Source of the DNA: a virus
Taxonomy: Duplodnaviria; Caudoviricetes
IMG/VR virus record: IMGVR_UViG_3300011335_000529
Coordinates: 1 to 27,232 of that record
Length of the DNA stretch: 27,232 nt
Strand: one strand, 5' to 3'
This document shows, piece by piece, positions 1,713 through 26,112 of this stretch. The notes beneath the pieces were generated by a model. That model saw nothing but the letters and a program-made list of their open reading frames with translations. It was not told where the DNA came from and did no database searches. Position numbers and translations under genes: made by a program. The number at the start of each line of letters is the position of its first letter. The first letter of the stretch is position 1.

Positions 1713-4700
1713 ATGGCTCAAGTACAACTTTACGCACAACAACAAAACAATGGCCAATACGTAGCGCTTGATCTTCATATTGAAGAACCAATCAAGTTAA
1801 ACTTGTCTGTGGCTAATATTATCGACCCAACTGCAACCAACTCTACATTCTCAAGAACATTTAGAGTACCTCATACTGCAGTTAATGGACCTTATTTTGA
1901 AGGTGTCTTTAATGTTAACTCACTAAACTTTGACGCTAGCAAAAAAGCAGATGCATACATTTTAGATAATGGTATCTTCTTTGAAAATGGTAATATCAGA
2001 CTTAATGCTATTAATGTAAACGGAAAAGACAATTCTGTTGAATATGAGATTACATTCTATGGAGCTACATCTGACTTTGGTTCAAAGATTGGTGGTGGCT
2101 TTATGAATGAGATTGACTTAACACAATACAACCACACTAAATCATGGGCTAATATTTCTGGCAGTTGGACCACAACGGGTGGTCTTTTTGATGGTAATGT
2201 TAGATATGGTTTGATTGAGTGGGGTTATACTTATAATGCTCAAAATCAACCAAATATCCCAACACTTTCAACAGGTTTTGCAAGGTCATTTACTAATATT
2301 GCTAATGCATATAAAAAGGACCAATGGAAACCACAGATTAGAGCAAAAGCTATATGGGATCAAATCTTTTTAGAAGCAGGTTACACATACGATTCAGTCT
2401 TTTTAGATTCTGAATTCTTTAAAAATCAATACATTATTTCTGACAATGTGGCTTCTGCTACTCTAAATAACTCAAACACATTTAGTGCAGAAAGAGGCGG
2501 CATTTATAATACAATTATTGGTCAAACATTTCCATGGATTACACCAATAGAAACTGAAGATCCTGGTAATAATTTTACACCAAGTTCTATAGATTCTGGT
2601 ATCTATACTGCGCCATCAACTGGTAACTATGATATGAATATGAAGGCCAGTGAAGTTGAATTCTATTTATACGGCGGAGGTCAAGACATTGTAGTTATTG
2701 GTTATGAAGCTAATGTAATAGATGCAGACACTGGTATATCTCTAAGCCAATATAACGATGACTGGACATTTAGTTCTAGTAATCCAGGTGGCCAAACTTT
2801 AGATGCTAACTTTAATTTATACTTACAAGCTGGTCAAAGAGTTAAATTTCAATTTAGAACTTTTGTTATATCAGGCCAAGTTTCTTTATATGGTACTAAC
2901 ATTCAATTTTATGGTCAAACTGTAGCTTGTACTTTAGCACCAGAAGTTTTATCTGTCAATGGTATTATGCCATCTAACATTAGAAAGATTGACTTTATGA
3001 AGTCTATCATCAACAGATATAAACTTGTTTTTGCACCATCAAAGTTTCAAGCTAATCACTTTACAATTACACCATGGAAAGACTGGGTTTTAGAAGGTCG
3101 ATCTAAAGATTGGACTACACGTCTTGATACATCTAAGGATATGGTTATCAAACCGCTTTTCTTTGATCAAGCCAGATTTCAAATCTATAAAGATCAAGAA
3201 GACTCAGACTACTTAAACTATAACTACCAATTAGGTATCAAACAAACCTTTGGTCAATTAAACTTGGACTCAACCAACGAATTGATCAAAGGAACTAAAG
3301 AATACAAAGATCAATTCTCACCAACACCTTTAGATGGTATTGGTTATATTACTGGCTCTGCATCAGAAACAGAGGCTGCCAACTTTTTAATACCACACAT
3401 AGCTAAAGATACTGGTGGTAATGGTGAATCAGTTGGTAACGTTTCTGTTGGTAAAAGAGAACCAATCCAACCTAAATTAAGATTAGTATTTTGGAATGGT
3501 ATGAGATCAGCGCCAATAACTTGGTATGCACAAACAGATACTGTTACACCAGCAACCATGTTTGATTATCCATTAATGAGTCAGTACTCAAATTTTCCAG
3601 TTACCTCGACAACCTTTGATTTAAACTGGGAAAACGAACTGCCTTTATATAACTATGAATTAATTTCAGGTGTACTAACCAATTCAAAAGCACAAACACC
3701 ATTTAGTTGTTTTAACACCTATTGGAAATCGTGGTATGATGTTACATTTGATCCATACTCAAGATTAGTAGAAGCTCATTTTGCATTAGACTATAATGAA
3801 ATCTTAGACTTAAAGTTTAATGATTATATCTTTGTAAAAGATGCATGGTATTTTGTTAACTCTGTCTCAGATTATGTTGCAGGCGAAACATCAAATTGTC
3901 GAGTACAATTAGTTAAGTTAGGTAATAATATTGGTATTACATTGCCAGTAGTTACACCACCAACTTATACAGCTTTTGAAACATGTTATACTCAAAACAA
4001 TTTATGTGCAGCTCATTGTTGCGCAGCATATGAAGGATCACAAAACGTCACCATTTACGCAAACGGTGCTACTCTAGTTGATTCTACTTTAGCTTATCAA
4101 GATTCTACTGGTGGTATTATTGCAGCACCTGGTTATTATTCTAATGCATCTGGCACTATATTTGTAAACTCTAACGGTGCAATCTTAGTGCAAGACACAA
4201 GCGCTTGTAACTGTGTACCTGTTTATTATACTTTTACAGTTTCTGTTAATACATCTGGTTGTGAAGTTTGTTGTAATAATGGACCAACAGTTGTTTTATA
4301 TGGAGCTAATCCTGTTTTTGAACAAAATGGTATTTTCTTTCAAGATCAATTATTAACTATACCAGCACCAGCAGGTTTTTATAAAGAGTCTGGAGCTACA
4401 TTTGCATTACAAGTAATACCAAACGGTACAGTTGTTAATAATTTCTTATGCTCAAACTGTAATTGCACAGTTTACTATCCATTTACTGTTTGTCAAGCTA
4501 ATACTTTATGTGACGCTTGTTGTTGCTTTGGTGGTACTTCAACAGTTTATGGTGAAAATGCAACCTTTGCTAACAACACTACACTTTATTTAGATAATAA
4601 TGGTGGTCAAAAAGTTACAAATGGTTTCTATAAATTTAATGACACAACAGTTGCACAAGTAACTGGTGGAGAAGGAGCTGTGACTGCCTTTGGTAATTGT

Positions 4701-11264: not shown

Positions 11265-13067
11265 ATGGAACAAAATAAAAGAGTTATAGAATTAGGTATT
11301 ATACCTGAAGACGAAATCAGTGGATGCTCTGCAATTGCATTGGTTGAAGAACCTGCAATTGAATTAGACTTTAGATATTTTAACAAAGAAAAGTTTGTAA
11401 CACCTTCTGCTGGCGAAAGCGAAGATGAGTTTATAAGTCGTTGTATACCAGTTGTAATTGGTGAAGGCAAAGACCAAGATCAAGCTGCAGCTATTTGCTA
11501 TTCATATTGGGACGAGAAGATGTCAACTGAAAAGTTTGAGAGCTATAACGATTACCCAGAATCTGCAAAGAATGCAGCTAAAAGAGCATTAGAAATTAGA
11601 AATAAAAATCCAGATTTAGATTGTGGTACAGCAGTTGGTTGGGTAAGAGCTAATCAATTAGCTAAAGGTGAGAATATCTCAGAAGATACTATCGCTCGCA
11701 TGGCTTCATTTGCAAGACATAAACAAAATAGTGAAGGTAATCCTAATGAAGATTGTGGCGCTTTAATGTGGCTTTGTTGGGGTGGAACTGCGGGTATTGA
11801 ATGGGCATCAAACAAACTAAAAGAAATTAGAGGTGAAGACTTCCAAATTATTAATCCAGACAAAGAAATGATTGATGGAGTGATCGATCTATTAAATGAC
11901 GTCGAAGATCTAGATAATAGATTATCAATGGCTAGAGAAATAGTAGATCAATTTATAGAAGAAGGTGTACAATTTGATATTGTAGATTTTATGAATAGAA
12001 TTGGATTTCATAATTTTGAAATAGACACTACTGGTTTAACATCTTACGTAGATCCAGGAATTAAAAAGAAGCGCATAGAAGAGGTTTATTCTGCAGAAGT
12101 ATTAGATACTATCATTGCAATGGCTGCTGAAATGGGTTACTCTGAGGATGAAGTGGAGATCGTTACACCTAAAGAAAAGTTTGCTAATCCAAAAGATGCA
12201 GACTACACACCAGCTAGAACTATTACACAAGCAGATGGTGTTGAGAAGTTATATCGTTATGAATCATCAAGAGTAGCTGATAATTCTAGATCATTCTGTC
12301 GCAGAATGATGGGATTAAAAAGATTCTACTCAAGAGAAGAGATTGATGCACTAGATACATTTAACGAAGAGTTTGGACCAGGAACTGGTGGTGGTCAATA
12401 CTCAATCTTCTTATACTTAGGTGGAACTAACTGTCAACATTACTGGCAACCATATGAAGCACAAAGAATTGGTAGAAAATTACAATTAACACCAATTGCG
12501 CCAGAATCTAGAGAAGAAATGAGAGCTAATACAGCACCAAGAACCACACAAGGTAGAGGTTATGTTAAAAGACCACAAAGAAGTTTACCACCTTTAGCAG
12601 GTCACTCAGCGTTTAGTAAAATGTTATTTGCTGATGACGAAAAAAAGATTGTAGTCGGAGCTTGTATGATTCCTAATATTGAGATCTATAGAAGAGACGA
12701 AGATGGTGATCCATACTATGTAAAGTTTAGCGAAGAAACCATCAAAGAAATTGCGATGAAGTATATGAAGCAAGCTAGAACTAATGATATTAACCAAGAT
12801 CATATCGAAGACAAAGATGCTGGTACTTATATTTTTGAATCATGGATTGTAGAAGATCCAGAGACAGATAAAGCAAAAACCATTTATGGTTATGATGTGC
12901 CTAAAGGGACTTGGATGTGTGCTATGAAAGTAGAAGATCCTGCAGTATGGAAAAGAATCAAAGATGGTGAATTAAAAGGCTTTTCAGTTGAAGGTTCATT
13001 CGCAGATATGGAAGATTTACAAGCCAGAAAAAATTACGAGAAAATCAAAAGTATTTTAAAAGGATAA
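11265..13067 (+). CDS. Prohead serine protease (XkdF-like) with several inserted modules
   Basis: N-terminal AIALVEEPAIE and C-terminal VGACMIPN...ESWIVED...VPKGTW...IKDGELKGFSVEG resemble XkdF-like proteases. It lies upstream of the scaffold and capsid genes. Confidence 0.8.
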   Translation: MEQNKRVIELGIIPEDEISGCSAIALVEEPAIELDFRYFNKEKFVTPSAGESEDEFISRCIPVVIGEGKDQDQAAAICYSYWDEKMSTEKFESYNDYPESAKNAAKRALEIRNKNPDLDCGTAVGWVRANQLAKGENISEDTIARMASFARHKQNSEGNPNEDCGALMWLCWGGTAGIEWASNKLKEIRGEDFQIINPDKEMIDGVIDLLNDVEDLDNRLSMAREIVDQFIEEGVQFDIVDFMNRIGFHNFEIDTTGLTSYVDPGIKKKRIEEVYSAEVLDTIIAMAAEMGYSEDEVEIVTPKEKFANPKDADYTPARTITQADGVEKLYRYESSRVADNSRSFCRRMMGLKRFYSREEIDALDTFNEEFGPGTGGGQYSIFLYLGGTNCQHYWQPYEAQRIGRKLQLTPIAPESREEMRANTAPRTTQGRGYVKRPQRSLPPLAGHSAFSKMLFADDEKKIVVGACMIPNIEIYRRDEDGDPYYVKFSEETIKEIAMKYMKQARTNDINQDHIEDKDAGTYIFESWIVEDPETDKAKTIYGYDVPKGTWMCAMKVEDPAVWKRIKDGELKGFSVEGSFADMEDLQARKNYEKIKSILKG

Positions 13068-13116: not shown

Positions 13117-13154
13117 AAAGAGAGCCAAGAGTTTTTAATTCTTGGCTCTTTTTT
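13117..13154. terminator. Probable bidirectional intrinsic terminator between convergent genes
   Basis: AGAGCCAAGA (13121-13130) pairs with TCTTGGCTCT (13140-13149), followed by a T run and preceded by an A-rich run. The stop codon of the minus-strand 65 aa gene lies in the loop. Confidence 0.8.
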
Positions 13155-13332
13155 CGTCTATATAACTAACAATAAAACCAATAAAAACAATTAAATTCAT
13201 TCCTAAAGATGTACATATTTCAACTATATCTTCATAAACATTTAACATTAGATGGAGATGTCCTAAAGTCCAGAAGGGAATAGCTAAATTTTGACTAATC
13301 CAAACAATAGTATATTTAAGAAAGTGTTTCAT
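13135..13332 (-). CDS. Small membrane protein, unknown function
   Basis: 65 aa with two hydrophobic stretches. Its start overlaps the upstream stop (TAATG), implying translational coupling. Confidence 0.65.
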   Translation of the reverse strand: MKHFLKYTIVWISQNLAIPFWTLGHLHLMLNVYEDIVEICTSLGMNLIVFIGFIVSYIDEKRAKN

Positions 13333-14135
13333 TACTTTTGATATATTGCAAGATCAGTATTTGATCCAGACGTACCATTATAAATTTTATGACATAAAGA
13401 ATTACGTAACATTAAATCAAATGCATAGTCTTCTGGAAGATTTAAAAGTAAACATGTTTTTTTAACAGCTTTGCGAGTAAACATATTTGGTAATTCATTA
13501 TAAACTTTCATAACATTATTCATCTTACAATTTTTTCCATGCCATCTTTTATGATTTTTTCTATCAACCATTTGTTTACAACATACACATTGTATTTTTT
13601 CATTTGCTTTTAATGTTGCTATTTTTTGAACATTAGCCCAATGTCCTGATTTAACATTTTTTGATCCACCACTTTTTCCAGCTTTACTTTGATGTTGTTT
13701 TGTTTTAATATTTTTAAGTTGTATAGTTTTAAAACTATATCCTAAATTATTAAATTGATTAGTTGCTAAAATATTTGTATTAATAGCATTATTAGTACAT
13801 TTAGTAACATTTAATTTAAATCCTTTATTTCCAGAACAACCATATTCTTTCCACAATTCTAATTTTCGTTCATTTGCTTTATGATTTTCTACAGTACCTA
13901 AAAATCTAAAAGTAGATACATCAAATTTATTTTGATCAATTCTAGCTTTAGGTACATCTACATATTTAGTACCTTTAACTTTCCACTGGCCCTTATGATT
14001 TCTAATCAAATATAAAAGTACTTGTGTATTATCTAATTCTAATAATTTAGCAGCAGCTTTTAAAGCCGGTGAAGTTTCTACAGCCATAAAAGCTGCAAAT
14101 AAACCACCTAATTTTAAAAATGAACGACGATCCAT
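13332..14135 (-). CDS. Tat-signal-bearing degenerate GIY-YIG-like/zinc-finger protein
   Basis: N-terminus MDRRSFLKLGGLFAAFMAV...ALKA fits the twin-arginine consensus. The body carries SKAGK and C-x2-C-x12-H-x3-C, both shared with ORF 25696-26112. Confidence 0.6.
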   Translation of the reverse strand: MDRRSFLKLGGLFAAFMAVETSPALKAAAKLLELDNTQVLLYLIRNHKGQWKVKGTKYVDVPKARIDQNKFDVSTFRFLGTVENHKANERKLELWKEYGCSGNKGFKLNVTKCTNNAINTNILATNQFNNLGYSFKTIQLKNIKTKQHQSKAGKSGGSKNVKSGHWANVQKIATLKANEKIQCVCCKQMVDRKNHKRWHGKNCKMNNVMKVYNELPNMFTRKAVKKTCLLLNLPEDYAFDLMLRNSLCHKIYNGTSGSNTDLAIYQK

Positions 14136-14136
14136 A

Positions 14137-14547
14137 TTATTTTACTTTAGCTTTTTCTTTATATTCATTCCATGTTAAAATCAAACGACCATACGCACGC
14201 TCTTCAGCATCAGTCGTAATCAATCGATCTAAAAATTGAATTTTTTGTTCAATAAAATCAATATCATTTTGAAGATAAAAACTTGCTTGAAACATTGCAT
14301 TAGTAGTAATATACTCAGAATAAAATGAGTCAATTAAAGTGTACATTTTTGCAAGACCAGATTTAAAAGTACCTGGTAATGCAAATTTAGACATTAATTT
14401 TCTATGTGAACTTTGATCGTCAAGTACTTTTTTCTTAACTTGACGTTGTACACCACTAGAAATGTCGCGACCTAATTGACGACCTGCTCCACGGAAGACT
14501 TCCCATACTAGAATGTCAAATCCGCCTTTTTTAAATCCTTTTGCCAT
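14137..14547 (-). CDS. Hypothetical protein (first gene of the minus-strand cassette)
   Basis: 136 aa ORF with an A-rich start context (AAAACAAAACAATT-ATG) and an upstream promoter-like sequence; it ends 1 nt before the next start. Confidence 0.7.
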   Translation of the reverse strand: MAKGFKKGGFDILVWEVFRGAGRQLGRDISSGVQRQVKKKVLDDQSSHRKLMSKFALPGTFKSGLAKMYTLIDSFYSEYITTNAMFQASFYLQNDIDFIEQKIQFLDRLITTDAEERAYGRLILTWNEYKEKAKVK

Positions 14548-14573: not shown

Positions 14574-14597
14574 TAAATATACGACAAATCCTTGACA
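14574..14597 (-). promoter_or_regulatory. Putative promoter of the minus-strand cassette (TGTCA-N12-ATATTTA)
   Basis: The minus strand reads TGTCAaggatttgtcgTATATTTAc, ending 26 nt upstream of the ATG. TATATTTA resembles the Bacteroidota -7 box TAnnTTTG. Confidence 0.55.
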
Positions 14598-14762: not shown

Positions 14763-15374
14763 ATGACGTACAAACTAAAATTGAACCAGATTAGACAAGT
14801 TCTAAACATGGACATCAAATTAGAATCGGCAAAATTAATCGATGGTGTAACTGTTGTAGAATACGAGAAACTCGAACCTGGGTTCGCAGTTTACGTAGTA
14901 GACGCAGAAGGTAACAAGATTCCTGCACCTGCAGGTTACCATACCTTAGAAGACGGTATCACTAAGATTGAAGTTGATGAAGCTGGTTTGATCATGGAAG
15001 TTTCTAACGAAGGCGCTGAAGCTGACGAAGAAGCATCTGAAGAAGGTCCTGCTGTTGTAGAAGTGTCTGGCGCTGCTGCTGAAGAAGCTGCCGCTGAACC
15101 AAAATTAGATGTTGCGATGGAAGACGCAATCATCGAAAAAATTGCTGAAAGAGTTGAAGAGAAAATGAAAATGATCTTTGAAGCTGTTGAAGAAGTTGCA
15201 AAAGAAGTTTCTACTATTAAAGAAGAAATGGGTGCAATGAAAACTAAAATGGAAAAGTTTTCAAAAGCTCCAGCAGCTACTAAAATTCCAGCGGTTAGCA
15301 CTGCTAAAGTAACTGACGCTATCGATGCATTCGATATGAAGTTAGAAATACTTAAAAATGCAATGAACAAATAA
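14763..15374 (+). CDS. Capsid scaffolding protein
   Basis: 203 aa, acidic and E/A-rich, with PAPAGYHTLEDG motif and a C-terminal coiled coil, immediately before the capsid gene. Confidence 0.75.
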   Translation: MTYKLKLNQIRQVLNMDIKLESAKLIDGVTVVEYEKLEPGFAVYVVDAEGNKIPAPAGYHTLEDGITKIEVDEAGLIMEVSNEGAEADEEASEEGPAVVEVSGAAAEEAAAEPKLDVAMEDAIIEKIAERVEEKMKMIFEAVEEVAKEVSTIKEEMGAMKTKMEKFSKAPAATKIPAVSTAKVTDAIDAFDMKLEILKNAMNK

Positions 15375-17569: not shown

Positions 17570-18568
17570 ATGGCGAATTTATTAAACAAATACATTTACG
17601 AAACCTATAAATCAATTATAGGAATTGGTCAATCTGGAACCTCTGGTTTAACTGGAAATCTAGAACCACTTACAGATGGAGAAGGTAAAGAATTACCTAT
17701 CGAAGTTTCTGAAACTCAAGTTAATTTAACTGCACCTACAACTGTACCAAATCTTTTTATTGAAGGTTATGGTGAAGTAATAAATGAACAAGGTTATTTT
17801 GTTGGTGAAGGCGGAGGTGGTGGAGGTACTGGTACTTCTGGTACTAGTGGCACGAGTGGATTGACAGGAAGTTCTGGCACAGCAGGAACAAGTGGTCAGA
17901 ATGGCTCATCAGGTACATCAGGTCGTAATGGATTTGCTGGACTAAATGGAACATCGGGTACAAGCGGTGTGTCTGAACCTGGTACGCCTGGCACATCAGG
18001 TACGAGTGGTACGAGTGGAGTACAAGGTCCAAGTGGCACGAGCGGAACATCAGGTATAAATGGTATTGGTGTTTATCAAAATTTAACACCAGCTAACTCT
18101 TCAATTACTTTAACAGCTGGTGTAAATACTATATTCGATACAATTTTAATTCCAGGAGATACTGTTAAAGATGCAAATAAAGTAGAAATTACTGCTAGAT
18201 ATTATATAAATAAAAATGGTTTAAATCCAACTACGTTAGGTGCAGTAACTTTGTATATTAACACAACACCTACTATCGGTGGTATTTCAACTGGATTACC
18301 AGGAATAATTACAGGAACTGCAAATGTAGCAGCTCAATTAAAAAGAGATGTTTTTGTAGTTAAAGCAGATGGTACAGGTCAAGGTAGTCAATTGTTTACA
18401 ACTGGAAGTTTTGCGGCTGAAACGGGTTTAACAGCTAACCCTGTCGAAGCTACTACATTTACACAAAATGCGATAGATTGGACCCAAGATCAATATGTTG
18501 TATTAACTGCAAACTCAACTTTAACTGGCATATCAATAGTACCAAAAGGTATTTCAATCAAAATATAA
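17570..18568 (+). CDS. Short collagen-like (Gly-Thr-Ser) fibre protein
   Basis: 332 aa: an N-terminal domain paralogous to the next gene, one Gly-X-Y tract and a C-terminal beta domain. Confidence 0.75.
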   Translation: MANLLNKYIYETYKSIIGIGQSGTSGLTGNLEPLTDGEGKELPIEVSETQVNLTAPTTVPNLFIEGYGEVINEQGYFVGEGGGGGGTGTSGTSGTSGLTGSSGTAGTSGQNGSSGTSGRNGFAGLNGTSGTSGVSEPGTPGTSGTSGTSGVQGPSGTSGTSGINGIGVYQNLTPANSSITLTAGVNTIFDTILIPGDTVKDANKVEITARYYINKNGLNPTTLGAVTLYINTTPTIGGISTGLPGIITGTANVAAQLKRDVFVVKADGTGQGSQLFTTGSFAAETGLTANPVEATTFTQNAIDWTQDQYVVLTANSTLTGISIVPKGISIKI

Positions 18569-18575
18569 TTAAATA

Positions 18576-20813
18576 ATGGCAAGTTTATTAAACAAATACA
18601 TTTACGAAACCTACAAAGGTTTAATCAAGACTTTAGATAACGAGCCTATTGATGGCGCATTAAAACCATTATCAGATGGTGAAGGCAATGAATTACCAAT
18701 TAAAGTATCAGATACTGACGTTGAAGTTGGTTTTTTAACTTCTAAAAACGTATTCATCGAAGCCTATGGTGAAGTAATTGACCAAAATGGTAATTGGGTT
18801 GGACCTCAACAAGGATTCGCTGGCACATCTGGTACGAGTGGTACTAACGGACAAAACGGTTCGTCTGGTACAAGTGGTAAGAATGGTACTACTGGAGTTT
18901 CTGGTAGTTCTGGAACTTCTGGCAAGAATGGAACTAATGGTTCTAGTGGCACAAGTGGAGTAAACGGTTCAAGTGGTCAAACTGGTTCTGCTGGAACTAG
19001 TGGCACATCTGGTTTATCTGCATTAGGATTACCTTCAAAAGTAATAACGACTGATAACCAAGGTTGGACTTTTGCTGATAATAAAAATACTAAAACATTT
19101 ACTTTTAATTCTGCTTTTGCTAATACAAATTATTCTGCAGATTTTACTTGGGATGTTAGCGACTTACCAAATCAAGTATTTAGTAATACTGGAGCTGTGC
19201 AAATAGAATTTATTAATAAAACTACAACCTCTATTACAGTTGTTGTTTATTTAGGAACTCCAATATCTAATTTTACATTTAATGGCTTTTTAACTTTAAT
19301 TGCATCTGGTGAAAGTAATGGATCTGGTACAAGCGGAACATCTGGTATGACTGGTGCACAAGGACCTCAAGGTGCCAATGGCACATCAGGCACGTCAGGT
19401 CAGAACGGAACTAGCGGAGCTAATGGAACATCAGGTACATCAGGCATCTCACAACCTGGAACACCTGGCACATCAGGAACAAGCGGTACAAGTGGTAATG
19501 GCACAAGCGGTACGAGTGGTACAAGTGGTATAAATGGTATTTCTACTGGTAGAACATACTTCTTTAACAATTCTCAAAATGCTGGTATTAACACATATAA
19601 ACTTTTATCACCAGATCCTACTGCCACAGCACAACAAACTGTTACTAAAACTTTAACTAATCAACAACAAAATGTTTTAGTACAAGAATTTATAACACCT
19701 TCATTAGGTTTTACAGTTATACCAGGTGGTGTACAAAGATTTCATTTACATTATAAAAAGCCTGCACAAAATGATAATATTGAAACATACGTTACATTAC
19801 AATTAGCTGACTCTGCAGGTGTACCATACGGTCCAGCAGCACCAACAAATGCTGCACTAATAGGATGGACAGATAATGTAAATCCAGTTGAAGTAGAAAT
19901 CGATTTAGTATTACCTACAACTGCAATACTTGCAACTGATAGAGTTATTGTTAAAATCTATTTAAATAATTTAGATTCAACATCACATACAGTTAACTGG
20001 TACACAGAAGGTTCATCTAATTATTCATACGTAACTACAACTGTAGCACCAACAACTGGTACGTCAGGAACTTCTGGCACAAATGGCACAAGCGGAACAA
20101 GTGGAGTTAATGGAGCACAAGGACCACAAGGAGCAAATGGTAGTTCTGGTACGAGTGGATTAACTGGTGCTACAGGAACAAGTGGTACGAGTGGTACATC
20201 TGGTGGTGGAGGTGTAGATATTTATAATTCTATTACAACCCCAACTATAATTTCAGGAGGTTTATCTTGGTATAAATTAAATGTACCAGCCTTATCCTTT
20301 GGTTTAACAGCCCAATCTATATCTATTAATAATGTTAGATTTACACCTGTTTTATCTTTACTACCCGGTGAAATAATAAAAGATGTTGCAATATACATTC
20401 AAACTGCTGTTGCTAGTTCTACAGTTGCATTAGGTTTATATAGCGTTAGTTTAGATGCAAATGGAGCTTTTTATGCAAGCACTTTAGTATCTAATTTTGG
20501 TACTATAGATAGTTCTACTACTGGTAGAAAAACAATAACTGGGGTAAACGTTACAATTCCAACTTCTGTAAATAATATTTATTATGTAGGTCTATTACAA
20601 GTAGGGGGCGCTTCAGCTGTTGCTGTAGCTGGACCAACAAATGGTTTATCTCCAGCATATTTTGCATCATTAAATGCAACAGTAATGGATAGAGCAATGT
20701 CAGTGCAAAGTACAGGTGTTAGTTATAGTGCATTACCATCTTCTATTAGCGCAGCAACTTGGGCAACATACACAAATAACACAACATACATATATGTTGG
20801 ATTTAAATCATAA
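18576..20813 (+). CDS. Long collagen-like (Gly-Thr-Ser) fibre protein
   Basis: 745 aa: three Gly-X-Y tracts (~18820-19015, ~19320-19550, ~20058-20213), each followed by a beta-rich globular domain. Confidence 0.75.
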   Translation: MASLLNKYIYETYKGLIKTLDNEPIDGALKPLSDGEGNELPIKVSDTDVEVGFLTSKNVFIEAYGEVIDQNGNWVGPQQGFAGTSGTSGTNGQNGSSGTSGKNGTTGVSGSSGTSGKNGTNGSSGTSGVNGSSGQTGSAGTSGTSGLSALGLPSKVITTDNQGWTFADNKNTKTFTFNSAFANTNYSADFTWDVSDLPNQVFSNTGAVQIEFINKTTTSITVVVYLGTPISNFTFNGFLTLIASGESNGSGTSGTSGMTGAQGPQGANGTSGTSGQNGTSGANGTSGTSGISQPGTPGTSGTSGTSGNGTSGTSGTSGINGISTGRTYFFNNSQNAGINTYKLLSPDPTATAQQTVTKTLTNQQQNVLVQEFITPSLGFTVIPGGVQRFHLHYKKPAQNDNIETYVTLQLADSAGVPYGPAAPTNAALIGWTDNVNPVEVEIDLVLPTTAILATDRVIVKIYLNNLDSTSHTVNWYTEGSSNYSYVTTTVAPTTGTSGTSGTNGTSGTSGVNGAQGPQGANGSSGTSGLTGATGTSGTSGTSGGGGVDIYNSITTPTIISGGLSWYKLNVPALSFGLTAQSISINNVRFTPVLSLLPGEIIKDVAIYIQTAVASSTVALGLYSVSLDANGAFYASTLVSNFGTIDSSTTGRKTITGVNVTIPTSVNNIYYVGLLQVGGASAVAVAGPTNGLSPAYFASLNATVMDRAMSVQSTGVSYSALPSSISAATWATYTNNTTYIYVGFKS

Positions 20814-25695: not shown

Positions 25696-26112
25696 ATGTA
25701 TTACATTTATCATATACCAGGAATTAAAATAGGAGTTAGTACTAATCCTAAACAAAGAGTCCATAATCAAGGATATAATAGTTTTGAACTATTAGAACAA
25801 CATGAAGATATTAACGTTGTATCTAAAAGAGAAAAAGAATTACAAAGACAGTATAATTATAGAGTAGATAGACCAGATTACGCAGATACAGTCGAACGAT
25901 CTTATATAGCAGCCAAAAGTAAATCGATAGCTAAAGTAAATGCAGCTAAAGAAAATATTAAAAAAGCAACAGCGGCTGCAGTATTAGCAGGAGCACCATC
26001 AAAAGCTGGTAAAGTAAATGCAAGTAAAGAAAGAAAATGTCCATATTGTGGTAAAGAAGGTAAAGGACCAACAATGTATCGATATCATTATGAAAACTGT
26101 AAACAAAAATAA
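25696..26112 (+). CDS. GIY-YIG-like free-standing endonuclease with C-terminal zinc finger
   Basis: YYIYHIPGIKIGVS...KQR...SKREKELQ is a minimal GIY-YIG-like pattern; C-terminal CPYC-x12-H-x3-C. Confidence 0.6.
   Translation: MYYIYHIPGIKIGVSTNPKQRVHNQGYNSFELLEQHEDINVVSKREKELQRQYNYRVDRPDYADTVERSYIAAKSKSIAKVNAAKENIKKATAAAVLAGAPSKAGKVNASKERKCPYCGKEGKGPTMYRYHYENCKQK

Follow-up and report, generated by a model that had tools for sequence, protein, structure and literature searches.

Why would a phage place a twin-arginine leader, the mark of the host route for folded proteins (Tat), in front of a protein resembling the homing endonucleases, which are selfish nucleases of the cytoplasm? The question was raised by one gene, gene B, in a 27,232-base virus record with an estimated completeness of 93%, the whole of which is called the window here. 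The window had genes for a portal, a head protease, a tape-measure-like protein, a holin, and replication initiation. An antisense block of three ORFs (13135-14547), in which gene B followed a second gene, gene A, separated the head protease gene (11265-13067) from the next head-module gene, at 14763. An earlier note on this DNA had viewed gene B as a single gene; the fusion of a leader to a degenerate GIY-YIG protein held, but gene A and the cassette that it forms with gene B had been missed. The features of the locus were as follows.

14574..14581, minus strand: candidate promoter element of Bacteroidota type, weak, one mismatch to TAnnTTTG
14137..14547, minus strand: gene A, 136 residues; N-terminal amphipathic helix and helical bundle, without a transmembrane helix or a known family
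13332..14135, minus strand: gene B, 267 residues; Tat-type leader, predicted GIY-YIG-fold domain, and basic tail
14049..14135, minus strand: Tat-type leader, residues 1-29; RRSFLK at 14112-14129, h-region 9-19, basic K26
13830..14024, minus strand: predicted GIY-YIG-fold domain, residues 38-102; Lys at the inferred positions of the YIG Gly (54) and the metal-binding Glu (91)
13596..13826, minus strand: basic, low-confidence linker, residues 104-180; SKAGK-type repeat, 14 K/R and 1 D/E
13527..13589, minus strand: zinc finger C-x2-C-x12-H-x3-C, residues 183-203 (C183, C186, H199, C203)
13335..13517, minus strand: C-terminal module, residues 207-267; also in leaderless phage proteins, e.g. P0034, P0037, P0041, P0055
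13121..13149, no strand: hairpin with a perfect 10-bp stem and a 9-base loop, seen directly in the sequence
25696..26112, plus strand: comparator ORF outside the cassette; leaderless small GIY-YIG-like protein with Gly and Glu retained

Setting of the locus

Gene B started one base past the stop of gene A. A Shine-Dalgarno-like word was found at none of the 26 gene starts of the window, all of which were A-rich, and a Bacteroidota host was inferred from these starts by a rule that we take to hold for that phylum. Of 18 loci, only 4 had an exact copy of TAnnTTTG, presumably the Bacteroidota-type promoter consensus, within the 215 bases 5' of gene A, in DNA that is AT-rich, and a sigma-70 scan gave fewer sites than shuffled sequences did. 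The hairpin at 13121..13149, located between the cassette and the convergent head-protease gene, is likely a terminator; a hairpin scan with a loop limit of 8 did not list it, its loop being 9 bases. The third ORF of the block (13135-13332, minus strand, 65 residues, hydrophobic) overlapped the gene B stop with its start and ended inside the loop of this hairpin. It is possibly a third cassette gene here, and its match to HupF/HypC was weak and below the cut-off.

Conservation of the leader

The gene B protein began with MDRRSFLK, in which DRRSFLK occupied residues 2-8, followed by 11 uncharged residues (L9-V19), [AVS]-x-A sites ending at residues 24 and 29, and AAA at 27-29; cleavage after A29 would be possible. 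The RRxFLK motif, hydrophobic region, and Ala-rich cleavage-like sites described in the earlier note were thereby located. A search with gene B against 1.84 billion representatives returned 95 matches, and the 46 whose alignment started within the first 15 residues and spanned the N-terminal domain were placed in the gene B family, which comprised 49 members together with the query, P0003, and P0009. RRxF[LIF]K stood at the start of 48 of the 49, and the only exception, P0027, began inside the h-region; none of the sequence-level outcomes that the earlier note named as refuting its reading was seen. Residues R3, R4, F6, and K8 were invariant in all 48 complete starts, exceeding every residue of the domain, and pairwise identity averaged 71% for the motif, as against 34% for the h-region and 38% for the domain. 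The strict motif was present in none of the 49 non-member matches, one of which contained a loose RR match.

The motif count was rechecked by routes independent of the motif because the whole-protein query favored leader-bearing matches and the leader-pattern scans of IMG/VR used the motif itself. All 11 GIY-type partners in the loci reached via gene A (window excluded) carried RR, and a scan with the domain only returned two contigs, those of loci L002 and L005, both leader-bearing and both already known. The arginine codons varied (CGT, CGC, AGA, AGG) across the nine loci with DNA, and pN/pS at leader positions 3, 4, 6, and 8 in these loci was 0.08, a pattern indicating that the R, R, F, and K of the leader are under purifying selection. 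With this composition, RRxF[LIF]K would be expected close to the start of at least one among some 30 ORFs with a probability of about 8e-5.

The features used as Tat criteria were then compared. The gene B leader carried a motif of the S/T-R-R-x-F-L-K type and a c-region with AxA and a basic residue. Of the 48 leaders, 47 had a basic c-region residue, the Sec-avoidance criterion, 33 had a helix breaker placed 12-17 residues beyond RR, and 32 had an [AVS]-x-A site, which the other 16 lacked. Tat signals have a moderately hydrophobic h-region of at least 12 residues according to part of a review (PMC7317946); the uncharged run was 11 residues in gene B, with a family median of 12, at least 11 in all 48 leaders, at least 13 in only 23, and a mean hydropathy of 1.5. 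Phe occupied the consensus position in 48/48 leaders, compared with the two thirds of E. coli Tat signals given in the same excerpt (PMC7317946). The register was also that of MdoD in the TatBC structure, D2-R3-R4-x-F6-I7-K8 in the portion of that report available (PMC13323110). With the family profile, N-terminal matches to PsrA, CueO, formate dehydrogenase alpha, and MdoD were obtained from the PDB at E values of 0.014-1.9. Gene B scored 13.8 bits (E 0.058) on Pfam TAT_signal (PF10518), which did not reach the cut-off of 22.7, and no match to the gene B protein was found in NCBIfam, TIGR01409 included. The best of eight members scored individually on TAT_signal gave 19.1 bits, none of the eight reaching the Pfam cut-off; at an E value of 0.05 or better, 17/49 members matched TAT_signal and 13/49 matched TIGR01409. 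The strict RR motif, the full n-h-c layout, and the basic c-region residue of the GIY-type leaders are best explained by TatC recognition, and the gene B leader quite probably binds TatC.

The leader patterns matched 87-147 stretches of IMG/VR, and in one unrelated phage gene (L003:2703-3047) a Tat-like leader preceded a body with a weak beta-helix match. Judging from such patterns, Tat leaders may be commoner among phage genes than reported. L001 and L003 were dropped as family members, being chance or leader-only matches.

Fold of the domain and replacement of its presumed catalytic residues

An AlphaFold2 model of gene B, built on a seven-sequence alignment, showed three strands and a helix in residues 38-97, in blocks at pLDDT 59-85, and residues 106-267 were almost entirely below 50. 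When the model was compared with 48,161 chains by VIA-align, the top match was I-TevI (Z 5.1, rmsd 3.5, 66 aligned residues), followed by the UvrC N-domain, PD-T4-3, the plant Grx N-domain, and T4 EndoII. The third and fourth of these we take to be GIY-YIG domains as well, so that all top five were of this fold, with Z scores of 5.1-3.5 that were middling but concordant. Residues 38-102 of gene B thus have a GIY-YIG fold, as modelled. In agreement with the structural comparison, hhalign matched the gene B family to six leaderless small GIY-YIG-like proteins at a probability of 93% (E 3.4e-7). These comparators, which include ORF 25696-26112, shared an invariant K-x-G, an R, and R-E-x-E-L-Q, with the Gly and the Glu present in 6/6. 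The matches of ORF 25696-26112 itself to T5orf172/MUG113 were weak and below the cut-off, its PHROG endonuclease matches fell on the zinc finger, and pairwise BLASTP between gene B and this ORF aligned the zinc finger only (E 0.051).

In the profile alignment, the invariant Gly and Glu of the comparators were matched by K54 and K91 of gene B, respectively. The earlier note had aligned gene B with ORF 25696-26112 by eye, with the presumed catalytic Glu as Lys, the YIG Gly lost or shifted, and the zinc-finger spacing and SKAGK in common; the family profiles gave the same register, both replacements extended through the family, and both shared elements were present in the two proteins. At position 91, the 46 aligned members had K in 23, R in 21, and Q in 2, and never E; at position 54, K (31) or R (11) was found in 42/49, and never G. 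The Tyr of GIY (Y42) was kept in 46/49, and R65, at the position of the conserved Arg (R27), was R in 23 and K in 15. The GIY-YIG Glu (E74 in I-BmoI) is the ligand of the one metal ion, and cleavage is lost when it is mutated, according to the available portion of one study (PMC2853131). Position 91 would correspond to this metal-ligand column by alignment register, in comparison with a family whose own nuclease activity is putative, and E93, present in 22/46 members, is a possible substitute for the lost Glu. Catalysis by gene B has likely been lost. The domain retained Y42, G49, W51, T56, F76, and W95, and in four close pairs pN was 0.13-0.23 against a pS of 0.53-0.80 (pooled pN/pS 0.49, with pS saturated), which indicates that the domain is still under selection.

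Tails of the gene B family

The tails differed between members. The zinc finger was found in only 11 of the 44 full-length members; gene B had been described in the earlier note as a homing-endonuclease-like zinc-finger protein, of which the GIY-YIG part stands, and the zinc finger does not define the family. NUMOD3 was found in 7/49 members, I-HmuI-like modules in 3, and NUMOD1 in 2, and HTH modules also occurred. Only 99 of the 946 pairs among the 44 full-length members aligned in their tails, indicating that the tails have been shuffled or exchanged between members. The mean net charge of the mature members (after residue 30) was +25, and gene B is likely a DNA-binding protein, as judged from its modules and composition. 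An Atlas search with gene B gave NUMOD3/GIY-YIG clusters at 0.76-0.77, below the bar.

Stretches resembling the gene B linker occurred in leaderless phage proteins. A family of such proteins, in which the nuclease domain is lacking (P0034, P0037, P0040, P0041, P0045, P0054, P0055), had the basic repeat and C-terminal module of gene B and often the zinc finger too. Pfam gave no name to the shared C-terminal module or to any of the three P0034-type proteins scanned. In a word-limited search, no relatives of B(1-105) shorter than gene B, leader-only ones included, were found. B(1-105) and gene A had no match among 50,697 GenBank phage records, no copy of gene A or gene B was found in the GTDB genome contigs, and a metagenome scan using the gene B alignment gave no match.

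Gene A and the exchange of cargo

Gene A was represented by 262 clusters, with 12 invariant residues across 120 aligned members and conserved G20, R23, and G26 in the N-terminal helix. The AlphaFold2 model had a mean pLDDT of 79, with a confident bundle and low confidence in helix 10-41. The hydrophobic moment reached 0.64, and the peak 19-residue hydropathy was 0.52. In TatA and TatB, an amphipathic helix comes after a transmembrane helix at the N-terminus, as given in part of the report cited above (PMC13323110). Gene A was rejected as a TatA/TatB protein: the amphipathic helix was present, but the hydropathy was below the transmembrane level (0.33-0.72 in four members), and a Pfam scan of 120 members gave only scattered weak matches and none to TatA/B. 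The TorD, DmsD, and NapD families had no sequence match in the 120 members, and none of their entries was among the structure matches listed. Fold searches returned generic helical bundles only (best Foldseek E 1.4; best Z 10.6, for a designed protein). Kinship with ferritin was not accepted, the matches being weak (E 0.15 or worse). Atlas feature search gave no usable match, cluster look-ups returned the annotation "hypothetical protein" only, and PADLOC matched 0/7 proteins.

The cassette set consisted of 24 loci with 21 distinct gene A sequences; 13 repeat contigs or sequences (L009, L011, L012, L014, L027, L031-L038) and the non-members L001 and L003 were left out. Gene A of L021 ran to the contig edge, which left 20 distinct loci with downstream DNA. 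In 19 of these 20, the gene after gene A started within -4 to +4 bases and bore a leader, L022 being the exception; conversely, gene A was upstream in all four contigs found through gene B. RR leaders accounted for 14 of the 19: twelve sat on GIY-like bodies, one on a protein that breaks off after 32 residues, and that of L029 on an unrelated body. The other five were single-arginine leaders (RG, RL, RI), three on TPR-like bodies (weak matches, related helical bodies) and two on HNH-like bodies. The pattern M-x-R-x-x-F-[LI]-K was common to all leader types, whereas the second Arg was not. The HNH-like assignment rested on a PHROG match at E 2.8e-5 for L008, and the usual His-Arg-Leu stretch aligned with non-His residues (weak, E 0.013). 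Gene A of L029 (2502-2900) was the closest to that of the window (58% identity), and its cargo combined a full RR leader (TAT_signal 20.1 bits) with an aromatic-rich 170-residue body for which Pfam had no family.

Cargo type changed four times on the gene A tree, and 170 of 500 shuffles were as low, in a tree with several long branches; on this count cargo type does not appear to follow the gene A tree. The neighbors of the cassette also varied, according to a reading of the ORFs by eye: head genes in the window, replication-to-portal boundaries in L004 and L005, a position upstream of terminase in L006, and, in L002 and L010, larger phages whose genes included ribonucleotide reductase-like or T4-type capsid-like ones. 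The cassette is by these comparisons widespread among uncultured phages and mobile. Its constant unit is gene A and the leader, with the cargo swapped among unrelated domains. The slot keeps an export-type signal since a leader-bearing gene was found in 19/20 loci despite four kinds of cargo, and DNA binding is not common to the cassette because TPR-like and unrelated cargoes exist. Gene A is likely a dedicated partner or escort of gene B.

The single-arginine HNH-type leaders of L008:3045-3566 and L019 (693 onward) ended in Cys at position 23 (VVC, TAC), which presumably resembles a lipoprotein processing site (lipobox), and the slot may hold lipid-anchored as well as cleaved cargo. In L024:904-1365, the gene B copy was broken after 57 residues with the remaining domain in another frame, through decay or an assembly error. 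Near the cassette of L002, in a 60-kb phage, three related ORFs (1041-2598 and 3408-4124) looked by eye like Mom-type DNA-modification genes.

Proposed function and alternatives

We tentatively propose, as a possible reading with somewhat less than even support, that gene B encodes a Tat-targeted, likely dead DNA-binding GIY-YIG protein that, escorted by gene A, acts in the envelope against competing phages. The twin-arginine leader would dock on the host TatBC receptor, and gene B would be carried across to the periplasmic face of the inner membrane. Having lost the metal ligand, the protein would not harm DNA during folding and zinc loading in the cytoplasm, and the basic residues in the former active site could keep phosphate contacts. 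Gene A may bind the leader and would protect either it or the cargo up to the point of export, in the manner of NapD with NapA. An envelope DNA-binding protein would then block later-arriving phages, giving gene B a presumed role in superinfection exclusion. Blocking later arrivals is the most plausible gain for a phage, and the varied tails would then track varied rivals. Extended to the whole cassette, this becomes a polymorphic Tat-export module, with a constant escort and a disarmed homing-endonuclease cargo whose tails stop the DNA of particular rivals beyond the membrane, which we consider somewhat unlikely. Completed export, or anchoring of the protein, has about an even chance. The reading in the earlier note, of a domesticated DNA-binding protein directed to the periplasm or tethered at the membrane, is supported in part, by the leader, the fold, and the replaced Glu. 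The short h-region, the library scores below the cut-offs, the basic and poorly folded tail, the five single-arginine leaders in 19, and the 16/48 leaders with no [AVS]-x-A site were counted against export. Tat aborts the export of unfolded proteins, as stated in the part available of one study (PMC3712460), and the basic tails could be DNA-bound in the cytoplasm before export.

The same tails fit a different outcome, in which gene B is a decoy or plug of the translocase. The leader would grip TatBC while the basic, DNA-bound, or unfolded cargo becomes stuck, so that export is blocked, the membrane is disturbed, or DNA is tethered inside, and the cargo would need only bulk and harmlessness. 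A motif stricter than natural Tat signals, the cleavage site absent from 16/48 leaders, poorly modelled tails with a net charge of +25, and four unrelated cargoes in one slot, repeatedly exchanged along the gene A tree, are all consistent with a plug. Yet the GIY-like domain keeps specific residues under selection beyond the needs of a plug, and a cleavage-like site is retained in most leaders. In the available portion of the TatBC structure report, a twin-arginine residue pairs with TatC E103 (PMC13323110), and the single-arginine leaders, which have no residue for this pairing, would make poor jammers. We regard the plug as unlikely.

Single-arginine signals are poorly tolerated by Tat according to the review excerpt (PMC7317946), and these leaders are more easily accommodated if the leader is a docking peptide for gene A. 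Gene B would then be a cytoplasmic DNA-binding regulator or an antitoxin-like partner, and any Tat export would only remove it, as a sink or timer. The gap of -4 to +4 bases in 19/20 loci indicates tight coupling, M-x-R-x-x-F-[LI]-K rather than the second Arg is what all leader types share, and DNA-binding modules are readily understood in a cytoplasmic protein. A precedent is found in NapD, whose epitope on NapA (R6, K10, A17) overlaps the Tat motif, as described in the accessible part of that study (PMC3712460). A private docking site, however, should drift with its partner, and RR was constant in 48/48 members of GIY type, from three divergent clades of gene A, in leaders with a full n-h-c layout and, in 47/48, a basic c-region residue. 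L022 also has gene A with no leader gene, and PADLOC matched none of the seven proteins. In comparison with toxin-antitoxin systems, the coupling of the gene pair was seen, and toxicity of either product is only putative. A docking peptide of this kind appears quite unlikely. That gene B is an active or decaying selfish homing endonuclease joined in frame to the leader of a small export gene from a phage, in a fusion with no function of its own, is very improbable: the tails recombine with ordinary homing-endonuclease modules, and a second nuclease fold (HNH-like) in the same slot and the interrupted L024 copy would also fit, but the Glu is absent in 46/46, the domain is nevertheless conserved with the leader in 48 members (38% mean identity), selection persists on both, and the word-limited search found no short leader-only relative.

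Comparison with known systems

In the fold of residues 38-106, and in having an N-terminal domain with exchangeable NUMOD, zinc-finger, or HTH tails, gene B resembles the GIY-YIG homing endonucleases (I-TevI, 1LN0; I-BmoI; T5orf172/MUG113-like). It differs from them in the inferred replacement of the Glu and of the YIG Gly by Lys or Arg, and in the addition of an export-type leader and a fixed upstream partner gene. T4 Imm and P22 SieA, which act in superinfection exclusion, and the DNA-binding phi29 p16.7 have ordinary transmembrane anchors and are not known to use Tat signals. They are likewise accessory proteins of phages, located at the inner membrane, where they influence DNA entry or retain DNA; the Tat-type leader sets gene B apart, and the likeness would be one of location and role. 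The leader is similar to the Tat signal peptides of MdoD, CueO, PsrA, and formate dehydrogenase alpha in motif, register, and n-h-c layout, whereas it is phage-encoded, has a short h-region and a stricter motif, and precedes a strongly basic passenger derived from a nuclease. Homing endonucleases that phages have put to use act in the cytoplasm. Such uses, in competition or counter-defence, are published for the intron endonuclease of PhiPA3 (PMC11620839) and in bioRxiv 2025.09.07.674715, and the available parts of both reports mention no export signal or partner gene. Like the genes of the Tat proofreading chaperones (NapD-NapA, TorD-TorA, DmsD), gene A is small and adjoins a Tat-signal gene, and it is made up of helices only, a property also ascribed to TorD in the available part of one study (PMC3712460). 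Unlike them, it had no sequence match to these families, its substrates are non-redox, and the cargo is swapped while the partner stays constant.

In open-licence PMC and bioRxiv, no Tat-signalled homing endonuclease or phage Tat cassette was found described. On the basis of sequence, the cassette appears to be a previously undescribed kind of phage cassette, for which the mechanism is a proposal only. A disarmed homing endonuclease with a Tat motif stricter than natural ones would imply that phages either send out DNA-binding proteins or target the Tat translocase; neither was found described in these sources. With either outcome, the cassette offers a small, directly testable two-gene system leading to a new route of phage-phage exclusion or to a natural Tat inhibitor, and gene A is a candidate for a new signal-peptide chaperone, one tolerant of unrelated cargo. 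The proposed export, if true, would be the first use of Tat by phages for competition, and gene B the first exported derivative of a homing endonuclease.

Other features of the window

Two neighboring proteins encoded at 17570-20813 of the window had related N-termini and long Gly-Thr-Ser repeat runs, and they are probably fibre-like.
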